A stretch of 64,000 nucleotides of DNA from an uncultured Spirochaetota bacterium (GTDB lineage Bacteria; Spirochaetota; Spirochaetia; SZUA-6; Fen-1364): the NCBI GenBank assembly GCA_963820525.1, contig CAWGAA010000003.1, positions 832,001-896,000 on the forward strand, in the 5' to 3' direction. This document shows positions 5,497 through 46,813 of the stretch, in pieces (the stretch's first letter is position 1; each line of letters starts with the position of its first letter). The translations under genes were made by a program, and so were the position numbers. The notes under the pieces are model-generated. The model worked only from the letters and a program-made list of their open reading frames with translations. It did not search any database and was not told the DNA's origin.

Positions 5497-6995
5497 AAAA
5501 TCGCTCCGCGATGGTTTTCATCGAGCCCTAGTCTCCATTCGCCGCCCTGAAAGCAAGACAGATGTTTCCCGCTTGTTATACAGCATGAGCTGTATTGAAG
5601 CGGCAACGGTTTTTCCAAGACCCAAATTCGAAGTCGCCGATGTTTTCAGACAAAGCACTCAGTTGCTAAAAGGCATCAGTTATGATCAGTGGAAAGTCGT
5701 AAACGCAATCATAAACTGCCGCGGTCCGAAATTGGGCGGCCATAAACTTGTTTGCCATGAATGCGGGTATGAACAAATATCCTATAATTCATGCAGGAAC
5801 CGGCATTGCCCCAAATGCCAGGCGAGCAAGCAGGCGCAATGGGTTTACGAGCGGACACAAGAGCTTCTACCCATAAAATATTTCCATATCGTCTTCACCG
5901 TCCCGGCGGTATTGAATTCCCTTATTCTCCAGAATAAAAGAGTGCTCTACGACATTCTCTTTCACGCCGCAAACGAGACTCTTCAAGAAGCCGCGGGAAA
6001 CCCGAAGAATCTCGGCGCTAAGATCGGGTTTATCGCCATTCTCCACACCTGGAGCCAAAACCTACTTGACCATCCACATCTGCACTGCATTGTTACCGGA
6101 GGGGGATTGAGCCGGGATAAATCCGCATGGATTGAAAGCAGGAACAACTTCTTTATCTCGATACACATTCTCAATCGACTGTTCAGAGGTAAATACCTGC
6201 ATTATTTGAAACAGGCATATGCAGCAAAAGAGTTGAGTTTCTTTGGTAAGTTACGCAAGACAGCAGAGACAGCCGGGTTTGCAAAGGTGTTGGATGAATG
6301 TTATGCGAAAAAATGGATCGTCTACGCCAAAAAGCCGTTTTCCAATCCGTTACGTGTACTGAAATATATAGGGCGCTATACGCATCGGGTAGCGATCAGC
6401 AACAAACGGATTTTGAATTTCACCGGCGGAAACGTGAGCTTTATCTGGAAGGACTACAGGGATAGAAACCGAAAAAAGGTAATGACACTTGCCGCCTCCG
6501 AGTTCATGAGAAGATTTCTCCTGCATGTGCTGCCGGAAGGATTCAAGCGTATACGATTTTACGGCCTCTTGAGCAACGGGCACAAAAATGAAAATCTGAA
6601 ATACATCCGTCGTTTGTTATGCATCGATCTAGAATCCCAACAACAATCGTTTGAATCTTTCTCGGAAGCACCTGAGATCATTGAAAAACGATGCCCGCGC
6701 TGCAATAGTGCTAATATACAAATCATTGAACTTCCACCGGAAGAGGCATCTGAAAGTTATTGGAACAGCGCGTAATAAAACCCATAGCGCGGGCGGAGCG
6801 ACTTCGTTCAACATAGGGTTTACGCTCCGCTCCCTTTGGTCGCTCCGGGCTCCACCACATGCCCCTCTGGCACAGGGGTTGCAGGTCAAATCTTCTTACG
6901 GTCCTCAAAGATGTGTGGTACACTCCTGTCTATGCTTTGCGGGGGCAACCCCTGTGCCAGCCCTTCGGGACGGGGCATGTCGTAAACCCTTTACG
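5491..6995 (+). mobile_element. IS91-transposase gene cassette, copy 2
   Basis: Repeat of 3546-5050 at offset 1,945. Confidence 0.88.
5573..6775 (+). CDS. IS91-family transposase
   Basis: Translation identical to 3628-4830. Confidence 0.93.
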   Translation: MLYSMSCIEAATVFPRPKFEVADVFRQSTQLLKGISYDQWKVVNAIINCRGPKLGGHKLVCHECGYEQISYNSCRNRHCPKCQASKQAQWVYERTQELLPIKYFHIVFTVPAVLNSLILQNKRVLYDILFHAANETLQEAAGNPKNLGAKIGFIAILHTWSQNLLDHPHLHCIVTGGGLSRDKSAWIESRNNFFISIHILNRLFRGKYLHYLKQAYAAKELSFFGKLRKTAETAGFAKVLDECYAKKWIVYAKKPFSNPLRVLKYIGRYTHRVAISNKRILNFTGGNVSFIWKDYRDRNRKKVMTLAASEFMRRFLLHVLPEGFKRIRFYGLLSNGHKNENLKYIRRLLCIDLESQQQSFESFSEAPEIIEKRCPRCNSANIQIIELPPEEASESYWNSA

Positions 6996-7001
6996 TTATA
7001 G
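6806..7001 (+). repeat. attC site of IS91 cassette 2
   Basis: Matches 4861-5050, followed by GTTATAG. Confidence 0.85.
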
Positions 7002-7005
7002 GCCA

Positions 7006-7044
7006 TTGCGCCAAGAGTTTTTGCAGTATAAGGTATTTTTATGC
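7006..7044 (+). promoter_or_regulatory. Cassette-internal promoter + degenerate attI-like site
   Basis: TTGCGC-N15-TATAAG; GTATAAG-GTATT-TTTATGC (the G of GTT is a T). Confidence 0.45.
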
Positions 7045-7292
7045 GTCTATTTTTTGGATGGCTCCCAATGTACAAGGGCCTCCAACGAAAGCCCAGCGAC
7101 ACAGAACTTAACGCGTTCGGTGCTGGTACTCGCGATCCTAGTCGATACTCCGTGATTAAGTGCACAGCTCAGCACGAAACCCATATTATATTGGATAGCA
7201 CTACTTGCCGGGCTGTGTTGCAATCCCCCGTCACCGGGGGGTCGCACTCTCACGAAAAGTAGCGCGCCGTGTAGCTTTCCAAGGAGGGTTCC

Positions 7293-7841
7293 ATGCTTCC
7301 TAATGTCCTTAACAGCACTGGACTCCTTGCATTCACAATCGGGATAGGCTACTCTGTACTCGTTCCCATTTGGCCGCTCTTGCGTATTCCACACTACCTC
7401 TGGCTTAAGATCCTCCATGACAAGAAGATCGACGCTAGATACACATACGCTGATCGTAGAAAGGACTTGCCGTGCATCCTGGGAGTAATAGAGAGAATGC
7501 TCTACCTCCTCTCCATGCTCTACGGCCATCCCGAATTCGTTGCACTATGGCTTGGGCTCAAATCGGCCGGACAGTGGAAATCTTGGTCGAAAGGAGAGAC
7601 CTATCCGATATCTTCGACGAATAAGCAACCTGCAACCGAAACAATCAACGGCAGATCAATCGCCTCCATTTTCTTCATCGGCAGCGGGCTATCTCTCCTG
7701 TTCTCGGCTGGGGGATTCTTGTTGGCAACGGGCTGGGATTGTCAGCGCGTGGACGCCATCACAGTCGCGGCTGGTATACTCATCCTCACATCGCTGATCC
7801 ATCTCTTTCTCTTCGCAAGGTTCAAGCGCTACGATCCATGA
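7293..7841 (+). CDS. Hypothetical membrane protein
   Basis: RBS AGGAGG, several hydrophobic segments, followed by a B-type attC. Confidence 0.75.
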   Translation: MLPNVLNSTGLLAFTIGIGYSVLVPIWPLLRIPHYLWLKILHDKKIDARYTYADRRKDLPCILGVIERMLYLLSMLYGHPEFVALWLGLKSAGQWKSWSKGETYPISSTNKQPATETINGRSIASIFFIGSGLSLLFSAGGFLLATGWDCQRVDAITVAAGILILTSLIHLFLFARFKRYDP

Positions 7842-7846
7842 TGGAC

Positions 7847-7956
7847 GAATAACAAATCGTTGACCGCCGTGCTGCTGTCTATGAGACTCGCCTTAGTCTG
7901 GAAGTCATGAGGATGCAGGGGGCTCTACGGGGCGGCAGCTCAGCTTTATTTTAGGC
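7847..7956 (+). repeat. Degenerate attC (B-type)
   Basis: GAATAAC-aaatc-gttg...ctcagctttat-TTTAGGC. Confidence 0.6.
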
Positions 7957-8331
7957 TCTTCGCGGAATCGAGTGGGTAAAATTCGGGTGATTTTTAGCGG
8001 TTTGTGGTTCTGCATCCGAGAATTATGCGCATGCAACATGAGTTCATCCCAAATTCCCTCGAATTCCCACGGTTTTCTGAGCATTCTTGGTAACGAAATC
8101 TCGCTCGTTTTATTTCATGACACCTAAAATCTACCCACGAACGGCGTTGACTGCCTTTCATATTTGTAACACATTTTTAGGCACGATAACACCACCTAAT
8201 CCTTTACTGAGTAATAAGATACGTCCCATTCTACTACTTTTTTACCCACTCGAGAACACGAAGACCCTTATTTTATATTTTTAAGGGGATCTAAATATAA
8301 TTGAACGATCAATATATAATGGCGCAACGGT

Positions 8332-8349
8332 CTATAATTGGAGTTATAG
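8332..8349 (+). repeat. Collapsed attC (only R''-like and R' boxes remain)
   Basis: CTATAAT-tgga-GTTATAG flanked by the cassette-end motifs ggcgcaacgg / gccattgcgcc. Confidence 0.6.
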
Positions 8350-8366
8350 GCCATTGCGCCAGGCTG

Positions 8367-8385
8367 ACATAATGTAATGTTAGAT
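8367..8385 (+). promoter_or_regulatory. Cassette-internal attI-like site
   Basis: ACATAAT-GTAAT-GTTAGAT; GTTAGATGCCA pairs with TGGCATCTAGC at 9608-9618. Confidence 0.6.
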
Positions 8386-8407
8386 GCCATTAAAGGGAAA
8401 GGGTATA

Positions 8408-9607
8408 ATGAGTCTGCCACACTGGTTGCGTTCCATCGACAACGGCAGGATTGGAGAGGCGCGTACACGTGCTATACTGATCGATCGCTTCTGGATTCTG
8501 GAACGGAGCGTTGATATTGAGGGCGCCGATTTCATCGTCCAGCGCAAGATCTGGGGCCGCAATCTCCTAGACGAAAGGGCTCCACGACTGGGATATGTAC
8601 AGTCTAAGTTCGCCCAGGACGAGGCAACCAGACTGGAGATACATTCCGACTATGTGCTTGATTCCGATAAACAGCCGCGTGACGAATTCTTCCTATTTGT
8701 ACATACTGGAGTGCCTGGTTCTGAGACGATCTACTTTTTTGCCGCTCGAGACATCATTCAAACATTTCACAAGGGTGCCGACTGCTTCATGGTGTCAATG
8801 GGAGATGTGAAAAAGCTGCCCGATTCTCAAGTCCATTCCACAGACTACGTGCTGTCGGTCATCGAGCACGCCCTGACTCAGGCAGATTTCCGGAAGAATC
8901 GCCTTTTCTATCACTACTTGAGGCTTGATGATACAATTGACACTCCAATTGACCACGATTTCACACTTCCACTAAGCAACTATTGGGGCGATGTCGTGCA
9001 TGGCATCCAGGAGATAAAGTTAAGAACCAACACACTAATTCATGACCTTGAACACGATATTGCGAAGCTCAAGGTGGCTTTAGGGACTTCTGACCCAGTT
9101 CAGTTTATGGAGACTTTTGAATTCGAGCATTTCTACGTCCTTGAAGACTTCTTCTATCGAAACAGCAAATACTTCGATAGCGAATTCTATAATGTATTGG
9201 TCAATCACAAGAAGAGAGTCAAATTACTCAGGGGGCGCGGCCTGTTGCAACAGTTCATTCTATTAAAATCGCACGTGGCTCGAGAAGTGGAGGCTAGAAT
9301 AGGAAAACACAAGGAGGAGGTCGAAGAGTATTTTTGTGTTGAGTTCAGATTACGGACAAGCGATCTATCAATTCTCGAAGTTAAGGACTATGGCGCTAAG
9401 CGCGAGAAAGTAGTTCCCCCCAAGCCCAGCGGCGTCCAGGAGTTTTATGGGGTGATCAACACAGACGACACCTACACCTTGTACGTTCGAGGTATGGATG
9501 TATTCTCGGGTGACGATGTAGCCAAGCGAGCACTCAGCTACTTAACCGACAAGTTTGATGAGGTGCTTCTTGAGCAACTATTCGGAGAAGCTGAACTCTA
9601 TGGCTGA
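8408..9607 (+). CDS. Putative PD-(D/E)XK nuclease (DUF4365-like N-terminus)
   Basis: GRIGE...DIEGADF...YVQSKF pattern; start 8384 or 8408. Confidence 0.6.
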   Translation: MSLPHWLRSIDNGRIGEARTRAILIDRFWILERSVDIEGADFIVQRKIWGRNLLDERAPRLGYVQSKFAQDEATRLEIHSDYVLDSDKQPRDEFFLFVHTGVPGSETIYFFAARDIIQTFHKGADCFMVSMGDVKKLPDSQVHSTDYVLSVIEHALTQADFRKNRLFYHYLRLDDTIDTPIDHDFTLPLSNYWGDVVHGIQEIKLRTNTLIHDLEHDIAKLKVALGTSDPVQFMETFEFEHFYVLEDFFYRNSKYFDSEFYNVLVNHKKRVKLLRGRGLLQQFILLKSHVAREVEARIGKHKEEVEEYFCVEFRLRTSDLSILEVKDYGAKREKVVPPKPSGVQEFYGVINTDDTYTLYVRGMDVFSGDDVAKRALSYLTDKFDEVLLEQLFGEAELYG

Positions 9608-9611
9608 TGGC

Positions 9612-9727
9612 ATCTAGCAAATCGTTAAAGTTATCCGTCTGAGAGCCTCTTGGAACTGTCTTTTTTTTCCGCAGAACTGTAAGTACATGGCTTCCGGTGG
9701 GGCGCCAACTCAACTCTATGGTTATAG
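9612..9727 (+). repeat. attC (B-type; R'' reads AGC instead of AAC)
   Basis: ATCTAGC-aaatc-gtta...ctcaactctatg-GTTATAG. Confidence 0.7.
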
Positions 9728-9836
9728 CGCTTCAGTTCTGGGTCGCGACCGATCCAACCCGTTGCCTCGAAAGCGTCCTGATAACCTGCCTTGAAATGTG
9801 CCTTATCTTCTTGTACCCTGGTCTTGGAGTCCAATA

Positions 9837-10922
9837 ATGACGACAACGCTGGCTGAAAGAATCCTATCCAGTGGCGCTTCTTCCGAGACGTTCTCCGAGG
9901 CGCTTTCGAAACAAGATCTATCCCCGGTATTTGTATGCGGGGACGCTCTGGAAACACTCCGGAAGTTTCCTTCTGAGTCTATTGACTCCTGCCTTACAAG
10001 TCCTCCGTATTGGGGAAAACGCGAGTACGACTCAGGTGGCATTGGCCTCGAACCTACTCACAAACTATATATCGACCATTTGGCTGAAGTGTTCTCGGAG
10101 CTACGGCGCGTCCTTAAATTGACCGGTTCCTTCTGGCTTAATATTGGTGACTCCTACCAAAACAAAGCGCTTCTCGGCATTCCTTGGAGGCTTGCTCTAC
10201 GGTTGGTTGACACTCAAGGCTGGGTACTTCGTAACAGCGTAATATGGAACAAAGTGAAGGGCGGGCCGGACAATACCGGCGACAGACTTAGAAACATACA
10301 TGAGGATCTTTTTCATTTCGTTAAGTCCGCGAAAGACTACTACTATGATTCAGCCTCAATCCGGACAAATCCGCACCAAGCCAAGGTAGTAAACGGCGCC
10401 ATCGTATCAGCAACTGGTGTAACAGGCGTCAGGTACCGAAGGCAGATTGAGCTTTCGACCTCGCTGACTGAGTCCGAGAAGGAGACAGCGCTGTCTGAAT
10501 TAGAGAAGATGCTCGATAGAATTAGGAACAAAGAAATTGCCGACTTTCGGATGATCATCCGCGGGCAGCAGAGAACAACTCACTCGGATTCCACTAGGGT
10601 ATCGGGACGAGCAAAGGAGCTTGCCACAAAAGGGTTCTACTTCCTCATTTATCATCCGGACGGCAGCAAACCAAGTGACGTCTGGGAGATTATCCCGGAG
10701 GACACGCAGAAGCGTGAAGCCCATTTTGCTCCTTATCCGGAAGACCTTTGTCGAATTCCGATCCTCTCGACTTGCCCTCCCGGTGGTGTGGTAATCGATC
10801 CCTTCGTTGGTACTGGAACAACCACTTTGGTAGCATTCAAGTTGCAGAGAAGGTCCATTGGAATCGATATCTCCGAAGCATATCTCAGGCACGCCAGCGA
10901 AAGGTGTAACCTGCTGCTATGA
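9837..10922 (+). CDS. DNA methyltransferase, beta-class N4-C/N6-A
   Basis: TSPPY motif IV precedes DPFVGTGTT motif I. Confidence 0.9.
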   Translation: MTTTLAERILSSGASSETFSEALSKQDLSPVFVCGDALETLRKFPSESIDSCLTSPPYWGKREYDSGGIGLEPTHKLYIDHLAEVFSELRRVLKLTGSFWLNIGDSYQNKALLGIPWRLALRLVDTQGWVLRNSVIWNKVKGGPDNTGDRLRNIHEDLFHFVKSAKDYYYDSASIRTNPHQAKVVNGAIVSATGVTGVRYRRQIELSTSLTESEKETALSELEKMLDRIRNKEIADFRMIIRGQQRTTHSDSTRVSGRAKELATKGFYFLIYHPDGSKPSDVWEIIPEDTQKREAHFAPYPEDLCRIPILSTCPPGGVVIDPFVGTGTTTLVAFKLQRRSIGIDISEAYLRHASERCNLLL

Positions 10923-11768
10923 GCCGAATATCGGAACTATTCGCCCATTCCACCATGAGCACGGGAATAGAGTGGAAGGACGTGGTTGAAAAACAGTACT
11001 GTCCCTATCTGAACAGGAAATGCCTGAAGATACGAAAAAGCGATCCTGATGTCTCAATCGGAACTTGCAGCGTTCTTTATGGCGATCCGAAAGGCATCGT
11101 CTTAATATGCCCATTTCGGCTACTCGAACGTAAGCAGATATTCTTCGACGCCTTGCATCTTCTAACTCATCACGAACCGGGCAACGAATTGCATGTGGTC
11201 CCTGAGATCAGTCTTCCCGGGGGCAGCGTCGACTACTTCCTGGTTTCGGCAAACGCTGACTACATCAGGGACTTTGTTGGAATTGAACTGCAGAGCAATG
11301 GACACAACTGGCACGGTGTGGCCCGAGCGTCAGCGATTCCTCAAGGAGTCCAGCGTTTCGGTCTTGAAATCAGAAACATCCTCGGAAAAAGGCTTCGGAA
11401 TCAACTGGAAGATGACCGCAAAAACAACACTGATTCAGCTTCTCCACAAGATCCAGACATTCCAGAAACTAAATCGGCACCTCGCTCTCGTGATTCAAGA
11501 CACCTTTCTTGCCTATCTTCGAGATCAGTTCAGGTTCGACCACATAAAGAAAGTCAGCATAGGTGATCCCATGCACTTTCACGCCTACAAAGTGAACCTC
11601 AGAAAGCGACGATACAGAATCGAGCTCAGCGAAAGAGTAAGTACCAACTCAGACGGAATTGAAACATGCCTCGGTCTGCAGGCAGACACTAATGTTGAAC
11701 TCGTGAGTATCGAAGAACAGATACGGAAGAAGATGTCTGACAGGACACTTCTGATACTCGAATCCTAG
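10919..11768 (+). pseudogene. NotI-family restriction endonuclease, frameshifted near 11294
   Basis: CPY...C.K...GTC...ICPFR Cys cluster. Removing one base joins GIELQ to AMDTTG. Overlaps the MTase stop (ATGA). Confidence 0.78.
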
Positions 11769-11839
11769 TAGAACGTGGGTGCTCCCAAATGAGGCGCTAT
11801 AACATGTGGTTAGATTTGATATCGTGTGGCCGCAACGGC

Positions 11840-11938
11840 CTATAACAACGCGTACACGCTCCGCTCCCTTCGGTCGCTCCGGGCTTCGCCACATGCCTCG
11901 CTTCGCTCGGCACGTCGTGTACGCGCGGGACGTTATGG
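11840..11938 (+). repeat. attC site (A-type)
   Basis: CTATAAC...cgcgtacacg/cgtgtacgcg...GTTATGG. Confidence 0.9.
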
Positions 11939-11942
11939 GCAA

Positions 11943-11981
11943 TTGCGCCAGGAGTCTTTCCAGCATAATGCAATGTTATGG
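11943..11981 (+). promoter_or_regulatory. Cassette-internal promoter + attI-like site
   Basis: TTGCGC-N15-CATAAT; GCATAAT-GCAAT-GTTATGG. Confidence 0.6.
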
Positions 11982-12928
11982 CTCTAGAAATCCGGCACGG
12001 AAGCGCTGGGAAGGTGGACATGGTACCTCGGAAGTCGCACGATCGCGAAGTCTTCTACAAGTATCGATCGGTGGAAGGCGCCCTGGAAATCCTCGGCAAA
12101 CTTCACGTCTGTTGTACCTCGCCACGTTTGTTTAATGATCCCTTCGATACCCTTATTGAACTGCGCCTCGGCTTTGATCCCGCAATGGCTCCAAGGCTAA
12201 TGTGGGAGAGAATTCAACAGATCGACCAGGGTACCATCCAGTACGACTGTCCGGACACCACTCTACTCGGCTGGATGATAAATCAGCTCAAGGCGAACCC
12301 GGTCAAGGGGAGGCCTGCGATCCGATGGGAAGACGTCTCGCAGAACTTCAATCCCGCTGAGGCGAAAAGGGTAGCCGATAGCATTCTTCAAGACTCAAAC
12401 AAGATTTGGTTCGAGTTCATAGAAAACGAGCGCATATTCTGCATGTCGGAGGTCCCTGACGAAATACTCATGTGGTCCCATTACGCTGACCAACATCGGG
12501 GCGCGGTTGTGGAATTCAAATGCGTACCCACCCTTGATACGACGTTCAACGTGGCCTCAAGAGTGACATACTCTTCAGTGAAACCCACCTTTGGCACGTT
12601 TGAGGAATGGTTTGACCATGCGTCTGGACGTAAAGAAATAGATCCCATGGAAATGTCAAAAGTGTACTCGTTCACGAAGAGCCTACATTGGCAGTACGAA
12701 AGGGAATGGCGCTTTGCCCTCAAAAAGAAAGCAGCCAGTAGCGATCTTTTCGAATATCGAGACATCCTTCCCCAAGAGCTAAACGCTATTTACCTCGGTT
12801 GCAGAATGCCGGACGCGGACAAGGAGAGAATAATTGGGTTGGTCAAGAAGTTCCTTGCTCACATGCACGTATACCAAAGCCACCCGGATCAGACAGAGTA
12901 CAAGCTACAGTTTGAGAGAATCCTGTGA
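11978..12928 (+). CDS. DUF2971-family protein
   Basis: YKYR, FNDPFD, LMWSHYA..H.G, K...W.YE.EWR motifs. Confidence 0.85.
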   Translation: MALEIRHGSAGKVDMVPRKSHDREVFYKYRSVEGALEILGKLHVCCTSPRLFNDPFDTLIELRLGFDPAMAPRLMWERIQQIDQGTIQYDCPDTTLLGWMINQLKANPVKGRPAIRWEDVSQNFNPAEAKRVADSILQDSNKIWFEFIENERIFCMSEVPDEILMWSHYADQHRGAVVEFKCVPTLDTTFNVASRVTYSSVKPTFGTFEEWFDHASGRKEIDPMEMSKVYSFTKSLHWQYEREWRFALKKKAASSDLFEYRDILPQELNAIYLGCRMPDADKERIIGLVKKFLAHMHVYQSHPDQTEYKLQFERIL

Positions 12929-12942
12929 ATGCGTCAGAAACA

Positions 12943-13056
12943 TCGGTACATGTCGTTATAGCTAACCACGGTACTTGCGTATGAAACCTGAGCTTGAGCT
13001 CATGTGAACCGCGTTATGGTCCCCCAACGGCGCGGCAACTCAACTCTATGTTAGCA
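12943..13056 (+). repeat. attC (B-type, degenerate R'')
   Basis: ...atgtc-gttatag...caactcaactctat-GTTAGCA. Confidence 0.65.
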
Positions 13057-13079
13057 ATTCTTGACTCGGTTCCTGAGCA

Positions 13080-14171
13080 ATGGTAGCGTATTTTATGATG
13101 CGCCATGGTCACGATCGTGCCAAGAGTGAGGCCGGTATGAAAAGTGATACGATATCGCCTTTTGAAGCTTCCGAAATACTTATAATAACCTTCTCAACCG
13201 AGTACGGAAAGCTGCTCACGAAAGCCCTAATAGACCAAGCAAAGGTGATGGACTCGCTACAGCCTATTCAAGCTGAGAACTTTTTCTTCAGCCTCTTTTC
13301 CATCGATTCATACCTTAATGGTATAGAAACTGACCAAAGCCTCCGGGAAAAGTTGTTCAATGAATTGGTGGATAGCTATTATAGAGAGAATCACATTCCA
13401 AATCGAGAAACAATGGATCTACTAATCAATAACAGGCTCCAGCAGTACTCCAAAGCATTCAACTTGCCGCAGCCTTCAAATCTAAAGGAGATAATAGCGA
13501 TTCATGGACAGCTTATTGCCAAAGCATGTCTTTCCGGCTCCAATGACTTGTACGTTCACGGAGAATCACCAATTGAAGACGATCTGATGCTCATTGCACT
13601 CATTAACGGTATTGACACGATACTTATAGAAAAACTGTATTTAGGCCTTAGAATGTTGAAGGAAGTACTTTTAGTCAATTCTGCCCCGCAATCCACCGTT
13701 GCTGGTCGATCATTAAATGCACATTTTTGCCATGACAGCTTACCCTCTATCTTGTTCAAGAGCAAAGAAAGCGTCCTCGACGAGTTTCTTGCCTATCCGG
13801 AGCGTACTGTAACAAAATTGTGGCAGTTCTGTGCTGCGACCTTTAAGGTGCAGTTGGATAGTCCTGTTTACACTACAGTACATGATGCAAAGAACGCGAA
13901 AATTGTGTTCATCAACATGCCAAAGCCAAAGCAGCCTACTGATTGCTACTATTGCGCCATCGTCTTCCATTACGAAAAGCGGCTGTTGTCCACGAACATC
14001 CAAAAGATCGCTTACTATACCCTTGAGCATGGAATAGATATTATCAACAAACAGACGCTGTATTTCATGTGTCGCTGGGAAAATGAAGCAAAGCATGTAA
14101 ATCTTGGACAACAGGCCGATAATAACGCAAGCAGATTTCATCAAAGTGTTCGTCAGATGGAATCCCTGTAG
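13080..14171 (+). CDS. Hypothetical protein
   Basis: 363-aa ORF filling the inner cassette GTTAGCAATTC...GAATGGCTAAC. Confidence 0.75.
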   Translation: MVAYFMMRHGHDRAKSEAGMKSDTISPFEASEILIITFSTEYGKLLTKALIDQAKVMDSLQPIQAENFFFSLFSIDSYLNGIETDQSLREKLFNELVDSYYRENHIPNRETMDLLINNRLQQYSKAFNLPQPSNLKEIIAIHGQLIAKACLSGSNDLYVHGESPIEDDLMLIALINGIDTILIEKLYLGLRMLKEVLLVNSAPQSTVAGRSLNAHFCHDSLPSILFKSKESVLDEFLAYPERTVTKLWQFCAATFKVQLDSPVYTTVHDAKNAKIVFINMPKPKQPTDCYYCAIVFHYEKRLLSTNIQKIAYYTLEHGIDIINKQTLYFMCRWENEAKHVNLGQQADNNASRFHQSVRQMESL

Positions 14172-14268
14172 AAAGGATTATGGATAGACTGTGCTGTCGA
14201 GATTGTGATTGGCATCAATAAATGAATGGCTAACATGCGCTTGGAGCGGCGCCGGAAGGCGCAACAGC

Positions 14269-14407
14269 CCATAACAGAGCGTACATGCTTCGCCGCCCTT
14301 GCGGGCGGCTCGGGCTCCGCGGCGCTGCGCCGCTCCGCTCCGCTCCGCCACATAGCCCTCGGCCTTGTTGGCCTCGGGCCACGTCGTGTACGCTCGGGAC
14401 GTTATGT
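14269..14407 (+). repeat. attC site (A-type)
   Basis: CCATAAC...gagcgtaca/tgtacgctc...GTTATGT. Confidence 0.9.
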
Positions 14408-19339: not shown

Positions 19340-19429
19340 ATATAACAGCCGGTTGCCGGCGTCGCTACGCTCCGCTCAAATCGCGCTCCCGTTGGTCGCG
19401 CGACTTCGGCAACCGGCGGGACGTTATGC
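19340..19429 (+). repeat. attC site
   Basis: ATATAAC-a-gccggttgccg...cggcaaccggc-gggac-GTTATGC. Confidence 0.9.
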
Positions 19430-19433
19430 GCCA

Positions 19434-19473
19434 TTGCACCAAGAGGTATTTACTACATAGTATATTGTTATGC
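19434..19473 (+). promoter_or_regulatory. Cassette-internal promoter + attI-like site
   Basis: TTGCAC-N16-CATAGT; ACATAGT-ATATT-GTTATGC; GTTATGCGCGCC pairs with GGCATGCATAAC ending at 23611. Confidence 0.6.
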
Positions 19474-20787
19474 GCGCCTTTGCATCGATAGAACATGCAA
19501 ACGCGGCCATTGCCGTGCCGATGAAATTGCGAGCGCAGATTACGGGAGGCAATCGGCTTTAATAGCGCCGTTCGCCATGCTATGATCGTCGACAATAGGA
19601 AGATTGCAGTGGATCACGACAATGCGGGATCTAATCCAATTATCAGTCTGTCAAGCCATTTTCACGATAATATCGCCCAATACGAGGCAGACGGATATGA
19701 TGAAGCGAACGTGCGCGTTGACTTCATTGACAAAATGTTCGAACTCCTGGACTGGGACGTTCGAAACGACACCAATGCAAGCGAACGCTTTCGCGACGTT
19801 GTTCGAGAAGACAAGATTGAGATTGGCGGAAGAGAGAAGGCACCTGATTATAGCTTCAGAATTGGAGGGCAGAGGGTATTCTTTGTCGAAGCCAAAAAGC
19901 CGCACATTCGGATAGGAAGTGACCTTGGAGCCGCCTACCAGCTAAGAAGGTATGGCTACTCTGCGAAGCTTCCAGTTTCTATCCTAACCAACTTCAAGGA
20001 ATTCGCAGTATATGATACCCGGATTAAGCCGAACCACGGAGACGAGAGCGCCGTTGCAAGGCTCTTCTATTGCACATATGAGGACTATCCAGAACAGTTT
20101 CCGTTTCTCTATAGCACCTTTTCTAAGCCTTCCGTGATTAAAGGGGACCTCGACCGCTACGTCATAGACAATCGCACCAAGAAGGGTACTGCTGAAGTTG
20201 ACGAGGATTTTCTTTCATTGCTCTCGGGCTGGCGTAAAATCCTGGCAAAGCGAATTTCATCGCAGAACCCAGACATTGACGTCTTCCAGCTCAACCATGC
20301 AATCCAAGTACTTATTGACCGTATGGTCTTCCTTCGTATTGCAGAAGCTCACGACCTTGAAGAATACGCAACTCTCCAAAAAGCCGTCGAAAAAGCGAAC
20401 GGCTATTGGAATCTGAAAGGCGTGTTCGCCCTAGCCGATCAAAAGTACAATTCAGGGTTGTTTGCAGTGGATGATTTCCTTAATTCGCTAAAGATCGAGG
20501 ACAATGTTTTTCGGGACATAGTACAGGACCTCTATTATCCCAAGTGCCCGTATGAGTTCAGTGTTCTGCCTATAGAGATACTTGGTAAAGCATACGAGCA
20601 GTTTCTCGGACAAATCATTCGGCTAACTCCCTCACATCAAGTGAAGATTGAAGAAAAGCCCGAGGTGCGGAAAGCTGGCGGGGTCTTCTACACCCCAGAG
20701 TACATTGTGAGATATATCGTCCAATACACCCTGGGAGAGAAATTGAAGAAGGCATCGCCACAGGACGTGCCCGCTCTTTCCGTCCTA

Positions 20788-21926
20788 GTGTAGTGCGTCT
20801 CACGCTTCTTTACATTTGGCGATTTTGGCGAGGATGCGCTCAACCGGGGCACTCCAGACGAAGGCTTGCGGGTTTTGATTGTGATTCTCAAGGTACTGCT
20901 TAATAGCCGCAATCAGAGTCTGGACGTTGGGGAAAGTCCCACGACGAATTCTTTTATCGGTTATCTCACGAAACCAGCGTTCGACCATATTCAACCACGA
21001 ACTAGACGTCGGGATGAAATGCAGATGGTAGCGGGGGTGGCGTTGAATCCATGCTTTCACCCGAGCATGTTTGTGAGTCCCGTAGTTGTCCACGATCAGG
21101 TGAAGCTCCAATTCTGGTGGTGTCTCGACATCGATTTTTTTCAGAAACCGGATGAACTCCTGATGCCGATGCCGTGGCATGCAATCACCGATGACCCGTC
21201 CATCCAGCATGCTCAGAGCGGCGAACAACGTTGTCGTGCCGTTGCGTTTATAGTCGTGCGACTGACGAGCTGGAACACCCGGCCGCATGGGCAACAGCGG
21301 CTGGGTTCGGTCGAGCGCTTGAATCTGGCTCTTTTCATCCACACATAATACAAGAGCCTTATCCGGTGGATTCAGATACAGTCCGACTACGTCCTTCAGC
21401 TTCTCCACGAAGTTTTTATCACGACTGAGTTTGAACGTTTCCACCAGATGGGGTTTGAGATTGTGTTGTTTCCAGATGCGGCGAATACTGGCTTCGGAGA
21501 GTTTCTGTGCTCTGGCCATGCTCCGCGTACTCCAATGGGTGGCGTTTGCGGGAGTACTGTGCAAGGTTGCCTCTACCACTTTCTTGATTTTTCCTGCTGA
21601 GATGCGGGGATTTCTTCCCGGCCGGGGCGCGTCCTTCAGCAAACCCTCCACGCGCAGGGCGAGAAATCGCTGACGCCAAAGCTGAACCGTGGGACGTGAC
21701 ACGTGCAAAGCCCTGGCGATGTCCTGACTGTCTTGGCCATCAGCCGCTCGTGTGATGATCTGTGCGCGAATCACCTGCCGGTGAGGGAGACTTCTACTGT
21801 GTTTCCACGTGTCCAGCGTCCCGCGCTCGGCTTCGCAGAGTATAATCGCTTGGGCTTTCCTGCTCATTTCAAGGGTAGTATACAAGGAAGCGAGACATAT
21901 GTCAATAGATTTGTGACGCACTACAC
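20788..21926 (-). mobile_element. IS630-family insertion sequence
   Basis: IRs gtgtagtgcgtc/gacgcactacac; TA duplication at a CTAG target. Confidence 0.92.
20800..21921 (-). CDS. IS630-family transposase
   Basis: HTH region plus VDEKSQIQAL...VDNYGTH...SSWLNMVE DDE motifs. Confidence 0.93.
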   Translation of the reverse strand: MRHKSIDICLASLYTTLEMSRKAQAIILCEAERGTLDTWKHSRSLPHRQVIRAQIITRAADGQDSQDIARALHVSRPTVQLWRQRFLALRVEGLLKDAPRPGRNPRISAGKIKKVVEATLHSTPANATHWSTRSMARAQKLSEASIRRIWKQHNLKPHLVETFKLSRDKNFVEKLKDVVGLYLNPPDKALVLCVDEKSQIQALDRTQPLLPMRPGVPARQSHDYKRNGTTTLFAALSMLDGRVIGDCMPRHRHQEFIRFLKKIDVETPPELELHLIVDNYGTHKHARVKAWIQRHPRYHLHFIPTSSSWLNMVERWFREITDKRIRRGTFPNVQTLIAAIKQYLENHNQNPQAFVWSAPVERILAKIAKCKEA

Positions 21927-23604: not shown

Positions 23605-23718
23605 GCATAACAAATCGTTGCAGTAGTCGCCTTTAGAGCCGTCTGGATCGGAAGTTGCAGTTCGGAATACAAGATGAGGCGGGTTGATGTGGCGGCGCTA
23701 CTGAACTCTATGTTATGC
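23605..23718 (+). repeat. attC (B-type)
   Basis: GCATAAC-aaatc-gttgcag...ctgaactctat-GTTATGC. Confidence 0.85.
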
Positions 23719-23780
23719 TTCTTTTTGCTAAATGATCATGCATGTTGCAAAGCGCGGCAATATGATGGTAGCCTCCTAAA

Positions 23781-24962: not shown

Positions 24963-24976
24963 GCAGAAGTACAGAA

Positions 24977-25093: not shown

Positions 25094-25135
25094 AGATCTG
25101 GATAGAAATACATTATTATAATCTGGCGCAACGGC

Positions 25136-27721: not shown

Positions 27722-27727
27722 TTATGG
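27532..27727 (+). repeat. attC site of IS91 cassette 3
   Basis: Matches 4861-5050, followed by GTTATGG. Confidence 0.85.
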
Positions 27728-27731
27728 GACA

Positions 27732-27772
27732 TTGCGTCTTTGAGCATGTACAGTATAATCGTAATGTTAGGC
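27732..27772 (+). promoter_or_regulatory. Cassette-internal promoter + attI-like site
   Basis: TTGCGT-N16-TATAAT-cgtaat-GTTAGGC; GTTAGGCCCTG pairs perfectly with CAGGGCCTAAC at 28695-28705. Confidence 0.7.
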
Positions 27773-27813
27773 CCTGACCGAATTTATTCACACCCGTAAG
27801 GAGATTTCTCACA

Positions 27814-28560: not shown

Positions 28561-28698
28561 TGCGTTGGCGCATCCGGCGGATCGTCAACGGCTGTGCCGC
28601 GCAACAGCTGGTGGCTCGCCGAGATGTGATTGCGCCTGAATTCATTTCTTATGGTCTAGTCATCCGTGCAATCAACAGAAAGCTCTGTCTCAAGCAGG

Positions 28699-28817
28699 GC
28701 CTAACGAATCGTTGCAGCTCTCCGCCGGAGCGCTGCTCGTGCAGTGTGGGCTTCAGCCGGGTAATGCGGTCAGAACGTGGTTTCATGTCGGGGCGTGAGC
28801 TGAACTCTATGTTACCT
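28699..28817 (+). repeat. attC (B-type)
   Basis: GCCTAAC-gaatc-gttgcagctc...gagctgaactctat-GTTACCT. Confidence 0.85.
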
Positions 28818-28868
28818 AGCGATACTCATGCTAATGGGGTGACATTCAAAGACGCAGCGTCCCATAAC

Positions 28869-30585: not shown

Positions 30586-30721
30586 AACAGCGGTTAATGC
30601 GCATCGCCGCCCTTCGGGCGGCTCGGGCTTCGGCGCGCTGCGCCGCGCGCCTCAGCCACATGGCCCTTCGGCCTTGTTGGCCTCAGGGCCACGTCTCATA
30701 ACCGCGGCACGTTATGCGCCA

Positions 30722-30761
30722 TTGCACCAGCTTAGATTTTCTGCATAATATGATGTTGGGC
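30722..30761 (+). promoter_or_regulatory. Cassette-internal promoter + attI-like site
   Basis: TTGCAC-N16-CATAAT; GCATAAT-ATGAT-GTTGGGC. Confidence 0.6.
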
Positions 30762-30856
30762 GCACTTCTAATTGTGATGTCACCGTCGCATGCCAGTGGC
30801 GGTTTTTAACGAATGATCGAGTGGCTAACCTCCGCGCGTAGGGGTATACTCAAGAC

Positions 30857-31459
30857 ATGCCAAATATCCTCGCAACGCTCTCAGTCTCTCACATCGTGCA
30901 GGCAATCATCGTAGGCGGCGTGCTGGCGTTTCTCACGGCAAATATCATTATGAACGCCGCGGTCAAGACCGTGACGACGACCGTCAATGGTTGGAGCACC
31001 ACCTTAAAATGCGGCCAACCCGGCAATGGCATCCTCCTGCGGGCCGCATGCGCTAAAATCCTGCCCGCCGTCAATGTGGCGCAAGAGGCCGCGTACTGGA
31101 CGACGACCATCGACAGTGCGGGGCAGACGCTGAACGGCAAGCACGATTACGTCCTGCGCTTTCCGGCAGGACAGCTCCCGCCGAACGATGCCTTTTGGTC
31201 GCTCACGATGACCGATGTTGTCGGTTACATGGTGAGTAACCCGATCGATCGCTACAGCGTCGGCGACCGATCCGGCCTCGTGCCGAACGCCGATGGCTCA
31301 ATCGACATTTATATCCAGAGCACGGCTCCGGCAGGCCATGAGGCCAGCTGGCTGCCTGCGCCGGCAGGCAACTTCAAACTGATGCTCCGCGCGTATCGGC
31401 CCGGCCGCGCTGTCCTCGACGGCGAGTACCACGTGCCGCCAGTCCTTAAGGTGCAATGA
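30857..31459 (+). CDS. DUF1214-domain protein
   Basis: L.G...Y.LRF..GQLPP..AFWSLT...NADGSIDIYI...WLPAP.G.F.LMLR.Y.P. Confidence 0.85.
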   Translation: MPNILATLSVSHIVQAIIVGGVLAFLTANIIMNAAVKTVTTTVNGWSTTLKCGQPGNGILLRAACAKILPAVNVAQEAAYWTTTIDSAGQTLNGKHDYVLRFPAGQLPPNDAFWSLTMTDVVGYMVSNPIDRYSVGDRSGLVPNADGSIDIYIQSTAPAGHEASWLPAPAGNFKLMLRAYRPGRAVLDGEYHVPPVLKVQ

Positions 31460-31460
31460 T

Positions 31461-32132
31461 ATGAACAGGTTTATTCTGAAACACAAATACCTCGTTACAT
31501 TCGTCATCCTGGCAATCCTTGCATGGTTCGTCTACAGGCAGTTCATTGTGGTGAGGAGCCCACTCTTTCCGTTCGCCGCAGTGGTAGCCATAGTATGGGG
31601 ACTCGGCACGTTCGTTTTCCTTTATTTTTGGCCGCCCATCACGTACAGTGCCTACAAAAGAGCGATCGTTCAGCATGGGTTCGGCGGCGGTCCAATCCCC
31701 GTCAATACGCTTTACGCCATGCCCCATCTCGCTTCGCCCTCGGCGTCAGGCTCCAGCCTATTAGCAACGGGGACCAACGACGTGCTCTACATCGGTGGCT
31801 GGCTCGACCTCTCCAAAGGGCCGCGAGTCCTGCACGTGCCGGACTTCTCCAGGCGTTACTACAGTGTGCAGTTCACCGATCCCTCGGACGGCGCCGACTT
31901 CGCCTATGTCGGCACGCGTACCACGGGTACGCAGGCGGGAGACTATCTCATTACGGGGCCAGGTTGGAAAGGACAGGTACCGAGCGGTATGACGCAGATA
32001 TCCTCTCCGAATAACGCGGTTCTCGTCATGGGGCGCGTGCGCGTCGAGAACGACAGCGACCTGTCGACTGCCTACGATCTTTCGAAGCAGGTACAGCTAA
32101 CACCGCTAAGCGGCTGGCAATCCAGCCAGTAG
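31461..32132 (+). CDS. DUF1254-domain protein
   Basis: NDVLY..GWLDLSKGP.VL.VPD...RYYSVQ...G.YLI.GP.W.G. Confidence 0.85.
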   Translation: MNRFILKHKYLVTFVILAILAWFVYRQFIVVRSPLFPFAAVVAIVWGLGTFVFLYFWPPITYSAYKRAIVQHGFGGGPIPVNTLYAMPHLASPSASGSSLLATGTNDVLYIGGWLDLSKGPRVLHVPDFSRRYYSVQFTDPSDGADFAYVGTRTTGTQAGDYLITGPGWKGQVPSGMTQISSPNNAVLVMGRVRVENDSDLSTAYDLSKQVQLTPLSGWQSSQ

Positions 32133-32160
32133 ATAGAATAAATGCCGTTGGTGCAACGGC

Positions 32161-32296
32161 GCATAACAGTCCGTAATGCGCATCGCCGCCCTGCGGGTAG
32201 CTCGGGCTTCGCGGCGCTGCAGCGCGCCGCTCCGCCACATGGCCCTCCGGCCTTGTTGGCCTCCGGGCCACGTCGCATACGGACGGCACGTTGTGT
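32161..32296 (+). repeat. attC site (A-type)
   Basis: GCATAAC...GTTGTGT. Confidence 0.9.
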
Positions 32297-32968: not shown

Positions 32969-32970
32969 CT

Positions 32971-44368: not shown

Positions 44369-44394
44369 GAAATGGACAAGGGAGAATAGATGAA

Positions 44395-44916
44395 ATGAAG
44401 ATTGATGTCGAATATCTAAAATTTATGTGGCCGATGAGACATTTCTTAGTAACATGTGGGGAAATAGAAGTAAAATCAAATATCATAGCAGTCAGCTTTT
44501 GTATGCCTGTATCAAAAGAACCCCCACTTATAGCTTGTGCCATCGGGAAGAAATCTTTTTCATATGAGTTAATCAAAAGCAATAACGAATTTATTGTAAA
44601 TATCCCTCCTGCTCAGCTAGAACCGAGAATATATTATTGTGGTTTCCACTCAGGATATCAAGTTGATAAATTTAAAGAAACGGGATTAACTCCACAACCA
44701 GCACGAAAAGTGAGAGCTCCTATTATTGCTGAGTGTCTAGCTCATATTGAGTGCAAGGTTAAACAAGAAATCGAAACAGGAGATAAAAACCTGTTTATAG
44801 GTGAAGTAATAGAGGCGTATGCAAATGAAGATATTGTAAAAGGTGCGGGGAAAGTTGAGTATGCGGAAGGCGATTTTCCACGCAAAGTATATGCCACAAG
44901 ATTTAAAAGCTCGTAG
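44395..44916 (+). CDS. Flavin reductase family protein
   Basis: PVS.EPPLI...EFIVNIP...SG..VDKF...P.I.EC...IEC. Confidence 0.9.
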   Translation: MKIDVEYLKFMWPMRHFLVTCGEIEVKSNIIAVSFCMPVSKEPPLIACAIGKKSFSYELIKSNNEFIVNIPPAQLEPRIYYCGFHSGYQVDKFKETGLTPQPARKVRAPIIAECLAHIECKVKQEIETGDKNLFIGEVIEAYANEDIVKGAGKVEYAEGDFPRKVYATRFKSS

Positions 44917-44931
44917 TCCACTTCAGCTAAC

Positions 44932-46663
44932 CAATCTGTTGAATAATTGCGTTTAAAGAAAAGTGATCTACCGATTTTATTTCCAATCAATCAGAATAGT
45001 TGTTTTTATTTAATCATCAGTTCTGAAGAGCGGCTCCTCTATCATCCCACCTGCCAGGCTTCAATCTTTTTTATCTCGCCTTTGCCGTATTGTTTTATTT
45101 TTTGGATATTGTGAACCAGCATATACAAAAGCCATTGTATTTTGACCTTGGCCCGTCCCCGTAACGTAAATCGATTCAGTTTCTTATGGTACGTGATATG
45201 TGCGAATACCGGTTCCACAATCCCCATTCGGCGAGCGTACATGTCACGTCCTTCCTCCGTATCGATCTTTTCCCTCATCTTTACAGACCAGGTCTTTTTT
45301 TTGGGCTTGGTCGTGACAAAAAGTGTCCGTGATTTCGCCTGCCGGTTGAGACAGCGGTAATGATTGACGCACATGCGGCAATCCAGTATTGATGCTTGAT
45401 ACCGGTCCCCACAGTACCCGTGAAAGAGGATTCCTTTGCGCTTCAAGGTCAGCCGCTTGCCCATCGGACAATAGTAGCAACCGTCCTTTTCGTCATACTG
45501 GAAATCCTCCTGCCGGTACTTCACCCGTTTCTTCTGCTCTTCCTTATTTTCAGGATACCGTGGATCCCGCACCCTGAAGCCATGATCGGGGATATACCCG
45601 TCAATCCCATTCCGGAGCAGAAACCGACAATTATCCTCGGAGAAATAGTTCGTATCGGCCAGGAGGGTGGCTGATTTCAATCCCAGGCCGAAACATTTCA
45701 TCCTCCTTAAGTTTTCCTTCGCCCCTTCCACCATGTCGCCCAAATATTCATGCTCGCAGACGTTGCCGAAGGCGTCCGCGCTCACCACGATCTGGTGTTT
45801 CCCGTCCGTGAGGGCCAGTCCGTTATAGCCCTGAATCACGCCGCGGCTCGACGCCATCTTGGCGCTCTCGTTATCCGTGATATTGCTCTTATTCTCCCGG
45901 ATTCGTCGCCCGGGTTTCGGATCGTTTTTCTCAAGAAACTCGCGAATTCGTTCGATTTTCCTATCCAGACGCTCCTTTTGTACGCGTAGCTTTTCCCTTT
46001 GTTCTTTGTCCTCTCGGTCGGTCCGTTTGTGTTTCGCTATCAGGTAACTGACCGTTTTCTCTAGTTTCTCCTTTTTTCCCTCAAGCTCCTTCAGGGTACC
46101 GCTCGATTCTTTGGAGGCGTTGGAGCTGAGTTTACAGCCATCGAGAGCGAAGATTTCCCCGCCGATCAGATCGAGCTGGGCGCAGATCAATAACACCTGA
46201 CGGAATATTTCCGTAATGTCGGTTTCCATAGATTTAATGAAGTTTGCGATCGTAGTATGGTCCGGAGCATTGTAGCCCGTCATCGCGATGAACACGACGT
46301 TTTCCCGACACAGGGTTTCCATCCCGCGCGACGATATGACCGATTTCGCCTAGCAATTGATGATGATTTTCAGCAACAGGCGTGGATCGTATGCGCGCAC
46401 TCCTCGCGTTTCGTTATGATATCTTGATTCAAAAAGCGACAGGTCCAATCGATCGAGCACCTGACAGCTTGCGTATTCGAATGTTCCTGGAATAAGCTGA
46501 TCCTTGAGACTCACTGGGATGAGCATATTCTGCTCGTTGTGATGATCTTTGAAGCGCGCCATTTCCCCTCCCGAGCCATAACGTGACTGTGCCATTAACG
46601 ATTCGTTGCTGTCAATGATTTTATGGCATAGAATCATTCCCGGAGGATAAATTCAACAGATAC
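44932..46663 (-). mobile_element. IS1182-family element 3 (divergent)
   Basis: IR core atctgttgaat/attcaacagat; AAC duplicated. Confidence 0.82.
45042..46562 (-). pseudogene. IS1182 transposase with in-frame TAG at 46350-46352
   Basis: AYDPRLLLK...*...ALDGCK...LADTNY...VEPVFAHI in one frame. Confidence 0.85.
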
Positions 46664-46773
46664 AACAAAGCGTAGACGCTTCGCGCCCTTCGGGCGCTCG
46701 GCCTTCGGCACATTTTTTGCCTGCGCTTCGCTCCGGCAAAAAACGTCGTCTACGCTTGGAACTTTATAGGCCA

Positions 46774-46813
46774 TTGCCCTAGCCGCTATATTCAGCATAA
46801 TACAATGTTAGGC
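46774..46813 (+). promoter_or_regulatory. Cassette-internal promoter + attI-like site
   Basis: TTGCCC-N16-CATAAT; GCATAAT-ACAAT-GTTAGGC. Confidence 0.6.

Follow-up and report, generated by a model that had tools for sequence, protein, structure and literature searches.

The window analyzed here is a 64,000-nt stretch of DNA from an uncultured Spirochaetota bacterium, positions 832001 to 896000 of contig C3 of the genome G000, which comprises 5.05 Mb in 4 contigs with 60% G+C. It holds most of a chromosomal cassette array, the C3 array, in which cassettes of two kinds are found, one inside the other. The usual view of an integron array is that of a flat list whose cassettes are all read from a single promoter next to the integrase gene; given that one promoter, most cassettes of long arrays are thought to be silent. 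In the C3 array, some of the outer (A-type) cassettes, which we call carriers, open with a conserved leader that ends on a second, inner GTT, and in five carriers a sub-array of inner (B-type) cassettes starts at that GTT. An earlier note on this DNA, hereafter the original prediction, had described such cassettes as mobile carriers of a cassette promoter (Pc) and an attI-like site. Feature coordinates are collected in Table 1.

The attC Families and Their Recombinases

Hidden Markov models (HMMs) were made from hand-picked attC sites of the window (for the B-type, the six inner sites, giving a 130-position HMM). They took the place of an earlier hairpin-based attC scan, which was too strict and returned 2 sites. 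The B-type HMM has 83 matches, as follows: 73 and 3 in two arrays of contig C1, behind the intI genes at C1:682092-683030 and C1:1954228-1955157, respectively, 1 on contig C2, and 6 in the C3 array. The A-type HMM has 30 matches, of which 22 belong to the C3 array (C3:828031-891446) and the other 8 form two clusters on C1. There are no cross-matches; neither model finds the sites of the other family. The B-type had been put forward as a separate class and is borne out as one, the HMM of the inner attC sites finding 76 sites in the canonical integron arrays of C1 and no A-type site. The six inner sites align across nearly the whole of their HMM and can be read as R''-AAATC/GAATC-GTTGCAG ... CTGAAC-TCTAT-GTTA, that is, as the imperfect inverted repeats of an integron attC. 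The unconstrained minimum-free-energy fold of one B-type attC is no better than those of shuffled sequences (z about 0.3).

Both C1 integrases pass the TIGR02249 integron-integrase model, with 448.6 and 410.7 bits. The C3 array begins ~100 nt from a divergent tyrosine recombinase of 265 aa (C3:825829-826623, minus strand, 5.4 kb left of the window), which scores 191 bits with TIGR02249 and is thus below the IntI cut-off of 265. Its best family is the XerA-like NF040815 (201.6 bits, under the cut-off of 220), and the closest solved chain by sequence is 2a3v_A (IntI4), with two matching stretches. Integron integrases are the nearest relatives of this recombinase. The alignment has a gap of ~40 residues at the IntI-specific insertion (I2 helix region) that is present in both C1 IntIs. 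Standard tools would score the outer array as integrase-less, since the domain by which they recognize IntI is missing from its recombinase. In layout the outer array is that of an integron: a divergent recombinase and a conserved attI are followed by cassettes bounded by attC sites. On the metagenome contig L046, a recombinase of 80.8% identity heads an A-type array, and the junction GAAATTCMCRCACAACGAG/T is kept (here and below, the slash marks the crossover). Of 401 genomes sampled from the class, 17, G000 counted, have a homologue of the C3 recombinase with 43-55% identity. At 4 of the 11 homologue loci scanned (1.5-kb flanks), an A-like attC lies on the 5′ side of the gene, and in the complete genome G245 an A-like attC stands beside array-like repeats at the homologue. 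The two cassette types of the original prediction are real; what it had missed is that, on the evidence of the two models and the two sets of recombinases, the inner cassettes are those of one recombination system and the outer cassettes those of another.

Two further features of these arrays were seen. The first cassette of the L046 array (1640-2084) has GTA/TAC in place of GTT/AAC, and it opens with GTAAAATGAAAGCGCC, which can pair with the R'' side of the same cassette at 15 of 16 positions. The big canonical array (G000:C1:684476-817864) contains many near-identical cassettes of ~390 bp beginning GTTATATCCATCTAGATTTATATTGATTAG.

The Leaders of the Carrier Cassettes

All seven leaders named in the original prediction were re-found in the window. 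Their outer R' and inner GTT positions are 6995 and 7038 (where TTT is read), 8343 and 8379, 11932 and 11975, 19423 and 19467, 27721 and 27766, 30711 and 30755, and 46763 and 46807. Each of the seven follows the pattern GTTRYRNRMC-ATTGCNYC ... YATARK-N5–6-KTT after the outer R'. A regular expression for the full leader has 8 matches in the 5.05-Mb genome. All of them are on the plus strand of C3, and an A-type attC comes immediately before each; the eighth, at C3:828230, falls 3.8 kb short of the left edge of the window. Controls with reversed patterns gave 0 matches. Inner sites are spread over 8 places of the array, each 36-45 nt into a cassette, and do not adjoin the integrase gene. When the 42 nt behind the stem of A-type cassette starts were shuffled 2000 times, the motif appeared 0.18 times on average and 3 times at most, against 8 of the 24 real starts (offsets 25-33).

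In six of the seven window leaders, TTGCNY lies 15-16 nt before the -10-like hexamer, as had been said; in the exception, 8343, the distance is 8 nt. When leaders from all sources are taken together, 9 of 12 have a 16-nt spacer, 2 have one of 15 nt, and 1 has one of 8 nt, and a thirteenth leader, on the metagenome contig L062, has a spacer of 18 nt. The TTGCNY taken earlier for a -35 box is present as described, and it had been overlooked that every A-type cassette has an 18-nt stem, of which this sequence is part in the carrier family's version.

The Inner Units

The six B-type attC sites of the C3 array are all in five sub-arrays, each of which starts exactly at the inner GTT of a leader; elsewhere in the 53-kb array, the HMM scan finds no B-type attC. 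The prediction of B-type cargo opening at the leader GTT and bearing its own ends is thus upheld for these five. The first bases of the inner units are complementary to their own R'' box, as in canonical integron cassettes, at 10-11 of 12 positions in five units (11 for 27766/28705 and 9721/11803; 10 for 13050/14234, 19467/23611, and 23712/24983). The pair 8379/9618 matches at 11/12 by eye, the box ending in AGC, and the loose pairing proposed for 7038/7853 amounts to 8/10 by eye. By 12-nt scoring, no convincing inner complementary partner is found for 11975, 30755, and 46807.

The nine open reading frames (ORFs) assigned to inner units are all on the plus strand, as are the leaders. They include an N6/N4 methylase, DUF2971, HSDR_N, an Eco57I-type methylase, Fic/DOC, and an S-adenosylmethionine (SAM) methyltransferase; the others match no Pfam family. 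In carriers 4 and 5, a full attC_B is followed by a tail of 37-39 nt and then by the outer stem and attC. The complementary ends support the view that the inner units would be independent cassettes. Closure of the carriers on their own ends stands as predicted, and it had escaped notice that two carriers end on what may be a truncated inner attC (see below). BLAST of the inner units against the genome gave no paralogues in the C1 arrays, and a plasmid search with the inner methyltransferase cassette gave just chromosomal-type methyltransferase genes of 72-83% identity, with no integron context.

The Outer Ends

Past each outer R', the first 18 nt can pair with the stretch that leads up to the following A-type R'' box, with matches at 14-17 of 18 positions. 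The proposed closure of the carriers on their own termini was recovered, with 15 matches of 18 for 6995/8338, 16 for 8343/11846, 11932/14275, and 27721/28868, and 17 for 30711/32167. The partner is the next attC downstream and never the attC directly upstream. At position 11 of the stem, an A on the R' side faces a C on the R'' side in 13/13 pairs read by eye. On the top strand the two bases are mismatched (A·C), whereas the bottom strand has a G·T pair there, consistent with the lower folding energy of the bottom strand (-30.5 vs -26.0 kcal/mol for the A-type attC at 11829-11949). These data support the proposal that the outer units would behave as single cassettes with their own complementary ends.

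Four complete carriers (window 19423, window 27721, and one each on metagenome contigs L060 and L062) have a full inner attC, a tail of 26-39 nt, and then the outer attC. This order, full attC_B, tail, and outer attC, is the product expected of an attI × attC insertion.

Further A-type cassettes with an 18-bp extended R stem are found in the window at 14401/15233, 15582/16674, 17243/19346, and 32290/33600.

The Inner Site, the Predicted Leader-Tail Hairpin, and the Putative Promoter

The attI crossover of the canonical integron at C1:683477 reads AAAACTCTATAAT-ATAAAT-G/TTAT (core TATAAT-ATAAAT-G/TTAT). Its boundary could be placed because the first cassette is found again at other positions of the C1 array; in G015, the sequence is nearly the same. 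The leaders with 6-nt spacing share the register of this crossover. The leaders have no resemblance to the attI of the A system; the match is with the attI of the C1 integron. The motif YATART-N5–6-GTTR is present at 39 of the 33,932 GTTR sites genome-wide and at 3 of 1357 on the plus strand of the C1 array, one of these three being the attI crossover. YATAAT-N5–6-G/TT is present in the 12 aligned leaders and in one more on L062, and the inserted cassettes have their attC distal. The comparison favors a likeness, over this short stretch, between the inner site and the attI crossover of one canonical integron of G000.

When the leader and tail of carrier 5 are joined (103 nt), the predicted fold has -26.4 kcal/mol, against -8.5 +/- 2.2 for shuffled sequences, and the inner GTT is in the apical loop of the hairpin. 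The leader-tail folds of G001 (a genome of another genus), L060, and carriers 2 and 3 have z values of -3.8 to -5.1. The leaders also display promoter-like boxes, TTGCRY-N16-YATAAT, with the 16-nt spacer in 9/12. A start ~7 nt past the hexamer would coincide with the inner G.

Recurrence in Other Genomes and Metagenomes

The strict leader pattern was searched in 25 genomes of the family, a relaxed pattern in 5 genomes, and an empty-carrier pattern in 92 genomes of the order. The strict pattern was found in G000 alone. The relaxed pattern gave one real extra match, in G001; a match in G083 was judged to be chance. An exact search of the genome collection for the 22-nt tail returned the G001 record alone. 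In G001, the leader and tail of carrier 5 surround an unrelated cargo of 1166 nt (copy 2), and a homologous tail stands behind at least two other cassettes bearing attC sites (copy 1). The carrier-5 leader or tail in the window and in the two G001 copies thus describe one carrier family with three cargos, always joined at G/TT. Of the filled and empty alleles anticipated by the original prediction, alternative fillings are found, with three cargos in one family and two genera, and no convincing empty one among the 92 genomes.

The metagenome scan for leaders gave 25 loci, 7 of which are preceded by an A-type attC; the other 18 have no A-type attC upstream and were discarded as chance matches. 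One complete carrier is found on each of L060 and L062; its cargo is another one, and it has a full attC_B, a tail of 26-31 nt, and matching outer ends (in L060, 762 pairs with ~1822). L062 also contains the leader of carrier 5, followed by the first 75 bases of that carrier's cargo, but the attC in front of it is not the one that precedes carrier 5 in the window.

Words of the stretch 27650-29000 were found in runs of 18 studies. Contigs of runs X2 and X7 that are 90-99% identical to the inner cassette diverge from it exactly at 27766. In runs X1, X2, and X15, homology to the inner cassette stops at 28698, where the R'' box lies, and the sequence continues as a different attC, which looks like the aadA-type attC. 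The occurrence of the methyltransferase cassette (27766-28698, with 90-99% identity) before another attC suggests a possible attC replacement at the R'' box. Run X1 contains the leader with the cassette start, and also attC_B, tail, and an uninterrupted outer attC. The X15 metatranscriptome contig has another sequence context and is uninformative on the leader. The sequences compared, from four runs and all of them assembled contigs, contain no joints like those of excised or empty forms, an absence that carries no weight in contigs. Judged from these sequences, the nested architecture is real and recurs in independent samples.

A loose leader pattern had more than 116 matches on viral contigs. 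Since none of the 80 loci fetched has an A- or B-type attC, these viral matches were set down to chance.

Proposed Mechanism and Alternatives

We propose that the carriers would form a family of A-type cassettes opening with a conserved leader of ~45 nt, composed of one half of the extended R stem (TTGCRY), a spacer usually of 16 nt, YATAAT, 5-6 nt, and G/TT. The presumed empty carrier would be geneless, its leader and short tail pairing as a hairpin with G/TT at the tip. B-type cassettes would be inserted at G/TT through an attI × attC-type reaction, most likely by one of the two classical C1 integrases, to give the order leader, inner cassette(s) with their own attC, tail, and outer attC. 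Because the composite retains the complementary ends of the carrier, the A system could move it as one cassette. The -35- and -10-like boxes of the leader, a putative promoter, would start transcription at about the inner G and into the docked cargo. We consider it fairly probable that the leader is a port where B-type cassettes dock by an attI × attC-type reaction and that the composite is movable by the A system; we infer further that the site evolved for docking, as opposed to merely being used for it. A wider picture, somewhat less likely than not, would be that of a "Russian-doll" integron: arrays of a lineage of IntI-related, I2-less recombinases would contain geneless hairpin adaptors with a promoter and, at the tip, an attI mimic of a classical integron, which would be loaded by an orthogonal integrase of the same cell and then shuffled and spread as one cassette with its own transcription start.

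A number of observations weigh against the docking proposal. Three of the eight leaders (C3:828230, 30711, and 46763) have no inner B-type attC and no inner complementary end, so the leader may in the first place be what ordinary A cassettes have at their 5′ end. The closure of carriers 2 and 3 is on an R'' box, 5 nt (ATGTG and ATGCG), and a short remnant, with no full inner attC; the short stretch after R'' would be a truncated B-type attC and is the least explained part of the scheme. The outer ends of carrier 4 (19423/25142) match at just 14 of 18 positions. The resemblance between leader and attI covers merely ~15 A/T-rich bases. Within the order, 31 intI-upstream regions were compared, and the attI-like motif is in just 2, those of G000 and G015. 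The attI of G001's visible canonical integron is without it, and the attI candidate of the second C1 integron differs from the inner site of the leaders. The -35-like box shares 3/6 positions with TTGACA, and a consensus promoter scan of window 6500-20000 listed none of the four leaders there. In G001 copy 2, the cargo has no recognizable attC and its gene is antisense to the leader. The empty-carrier pattern had 3 matches in the 92 genomes, none convincing: the one in G080 is, on inspection, the 3′ end of an ordinary cassette, and the other two were judged to be chance from the matched letters alone. L043, considered as a third context of the carrier, was set aside, as an inverted copy of the carrier's own attC lies upstream; it may be an assembly fold-back. 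The original idea of mobile Pc + attI carriers is partly supported: the nesting, the exact junctions, the three cargos, and the recurrence are on its side, while the weak -35 box, the silent scan, and the missing empty carrier tell against it.

The main rival to the docking-adaptor mechanism is opportunistic insertion combined with selection. Canonical integrases would now and then insert cassettes at loose, secondary (attG-like) GTT sites, the leader being simply a promoter or 5′ region of some A-type cassettes. Since only insertions just past the promoter would be expressed and kept, the shared position would reflect selection for expression. The three leaders of eight that hold ordinary cargo without an inner attC are as expected in such a case. 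So is a G001 leader variant that has GTC for GTT and runs straight into an ATG, as is an attI likeness that is short, A/T-rich, and absent from G001's visible integron. The use of non-classical attG sites by integrases has been reported (as cited in PMC12901181). Loose insertion fits poorly, however, with a junction at the identical base in 5/5 sub-arrays and also in L060 and L062, with the use of one carrier family at least three times at the G/TT base, with a motif at a fixed offset in a conserved hairpin tip, and with a 53-kb array devoid of B-type attC sites elsewhere. We regard this explanation as unlikely, while taking it seriously.

Much less probable is a swap of cargo between carriers by homologous recombination or gene conversion, the leader and tail being the conserved untranslated ends of one A-type family. 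Carrier 5 and the two G001 copies are alike over 40-57 nt of leader and tail, a likeness sufficient for such exchange to happen occasionally. The exchange does not account for a cargo start exactly at G/TT that is complementary to its own R'' box (up to 11/12), for a distal junction exactly at R' of a full B-type attC, or for the break in homology at 27766 in other metagenomes.

Finally, a linear array with two attC sizes and no nesting, in which the last inner R''-like box, the A-type attC, and the inner GTT would together be one giant attC, could be read into carriers 2 and 3, where the outer stem has an R''-like box ~20-30 nt in front of it and the outer R' is followed by the inner GTT at ~45 nt, so that the two might pass for the outermost boxes of one long hairpin, but it is hardly credible and was rejected, because the outer ends co-vary with the next attC and not with the same one (the 18-24 nt after the outer R' pair with the 5′ flank of the next A-type attC, as in 27721/28868 and L060 762/~1822), the carrier-5 leader stands behind different upstream attC sites, and the attC at 14258-14407 has an R''-like box in front with no leader or inner GTT behind.

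If the docking proposal is true, independent expression islands could exist anywhere in an array, and two integron systems of one cell would have a defined port for gene exchange. Several captured genes could move as a block, for example, a DNA methylase, parts of a restriction-modification enzyme, and a Fic protein. For annotation, tools that assume one attC per cassette would mis-segment nested arrays.

Feature Coordinates and Other Elements of the Array

Table 1. Carrier cassettes of the C3 array and their parts, in window coordinates.
Feature	Coordinates	Strand	Description
Carrier 1 leader	6995..7040	+	TTGCGC-N15-TATAAG-N5; inner site TTT at 7038
Carrier 1 inner unit	7038..7950	+	ORF 7293-7841, no Pfam family
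Carrier 1 B-type attC	7842-7959	+	R' = TTT at 7950; ~370-nt tail to 8320
Minimal A-type site	8321..8349	+	Extended R'' box, 4 nt, R'; entire central hairpin absent; ends carrier 1 and starts carrier 2
Carrier 2 leader, short variant	8343..8381	+	TTGCGC-N8-CATAAT-N5-GTT
Carrier 2 first inner B-type cassette	8379..9727	+	ORF 8384-9607; attC_B 9607-9731
Carrier 2 second inner unit	9721..11828	+	N6/N4 DNA methylase ORF, then overlapping ORFs 10919-11566 and 11193-11768 (no Pfam family)
Carrier 2 second inner unit, ends	9721 vs 11792-11803		11/12; then R'' + ATGTG + GTTAGAT + 13 nt, outer stem
A-type attC, extended stem, ending carrier 2	11829..11938	+	HMM, folding
Carrier 3 leader	11932..11977	+	TTGCGC-N15-CATAAT-N5-GTT
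Carrier 3 first inner B-type cassette	11975..13056	+	DUF2971 ORF 11978-12928; attC_B 12949-13059
Carrier 3 second inner unit	13050..14257	+	ORF 13080-14171; ends 10/12; R'' + ATGCG + CTTGGAG..., before outer stem
A-type attC ending carrier 3	14258..14407	+	HMM, outer-end match
Carrier 4 leader	19423..19469	+	TTGCAC-N16-CATAGT-N5-GTT
Carrier 4 first inner B-type cassette	19467..23718	+	HSDR_N ORF and Eco57I/TaqI-type methylase ORF; attC_B 23601-23723
IS630-like element between carrier 4 ORFs	20785-21946		Two copies on contig C2
Carrier 4 second inner B-type cassette	23712..25087	+	Fic/DOC ORF 23781-24962; full attC_B 24971-25087
Carrier 4 tail (37 nt) and closing A-type attC (25125-25205)	25088..25205	+	Outer ends 14/18
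Carrier 5 leader	27721..27768	+	TTGCGT-N16-TATAAT-N6-GTT
Carrier 5 inner B-type cassette	27766..28811	+	Class I SAM methyltransferase ORF 27814-28560; full attC_B 28695-28817
Carrier 5 tail (39 nt) and extended R'' box	28812..28868	+	Complementary to first ~23 nt of leader; tail conserved in G001
Rest of A-type attC ending carrier 5	28869..30717	+	Interrupted by an insertion sequence (IS) directly after R'' box; uninterrupted form in run X1
Carrier 6	30711..32296	+	Leader TTGCAC-N16-CATAAT-N5-GTT (30755); DUF1214 and DUF1254 ORFs; A-type attC 32150-32296; no inner attC or inner complementary end by HMM and end-pair scoring
Leader 7	46763..46809	+	After last A-type attC of array; outer R' = TTT; inner GTT 46807; no closing site downstream

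The IS inside the closing attC of carrier 5 (28869-30585, minus strand) encodes a DDE transposase of 504 aa (DDE_Tnp_1_6). It is inserted twice in the array (28869-30585 and 41604-43317), at the same base of an A-type attC, directly after R'' ATAAC, and with the same inverted ends. The copy at 41604-43317 is diverged (86-92%) and its frame is broken, and a third related transposase ORF is at 45042-46322. One A-type cassette is the gene of an IS91-family Y2 transposase (400 aa); it has an attC of its own, and its ends are complementary at 16/18 positions. It is present in four copies, at 3545-5050, 5490-6995, and 26216-27721 of the window and at C3:826726-828230. The three window copies are identical over the 300 nt compared, and one copy is directly at the attI of the array. 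A lone 3′ part of an A-type attC (59333-59446), 86% identical to the copy at 26111, lies 12.5 kb past the end of the array among ordinary genes of 55-60% G+C. At 32367-32968, what was probably a frameshift has broken a DUF5343 gene into overlapping frames of 94 and 120 aa; next in the same cassette is a Swt1-like HEPN gene. Rfam gave no family in the window.

Comparison with Known Systems

Full-text literature searches (supplements aside) found no description of nested cassettes or of a cassette-borne attI-like port, and the nested architecture is a new form of integron organization. Loot et al., in Nat Microbiol in 2024, reportedly described attG sites as widespread, loosely defined secondary insertion sites. 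As far as such accounts go, the carriers would share with attG the insertion of attC cassettes at double-stranded sites that contain GTT and are neither attI nor attC. Unlike attG, the site here is a single conserved one on a mobile cassette and is used repeatedly.

Among the nearest systems are the unusual delta-attI-type cassettes of class 1 and 2 integrons, in which attI-derived sequence inside arrays can still recombine (PMC12901181). Delta-attI1 is AAACAAAGTTRRRY and delta-attI2 is AATAAAATGTTRRRY, both A/T-rich up to G/TT (PMC12901181). The leaders resemble delta-attI and attI sites in having an A/T-rich left arm directly before a G/TTRRRY crossover, with cassettes entering attC distal. 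A rearrangement at the R'' box is described there for unusual cassettes, and it resembles the truncated closures of carriers 2 and 3. In contrast to attI and delta-attI as presented in that source, the leader site is away from the integrase gene and is not a 3′-end remnant. It is instead a conserved internal 5′ feature of the cassette family of the other system and hosts whole sub-arrays.

In the chromosomal integrons of Vibrio, small geneless promoter cassettes drive their neighbors far from Pc (Blanco et al. 2024, PMC11014356). The carriers would likewise be small geneless units driving cassettes far from Pc, the likeness being to the presumed empty form and to a promoter predicted from its sequence. 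A Vibrio promoter cassette drives the next cassette and the two units are separate, as that text has it, whereas the cargo of a carrier sits inside it, between leader and tail, starts at a defined base, and has its ends in common with the carrier.

In sedentary chromosomal integrons, the attC families are taxon-specific, and one of them is a Spirochaetes type (Ghaly et al. 2021, PMC8352920). The arrays of G000 resemble them in length, in highly similar attC sites, and in an attC type that tracks the host lineage or the integron. As depicted in that source, the arrays of sedentary integrons are flat; the C3 array, in contrast, has two attC families in a strict inside/outside relation.

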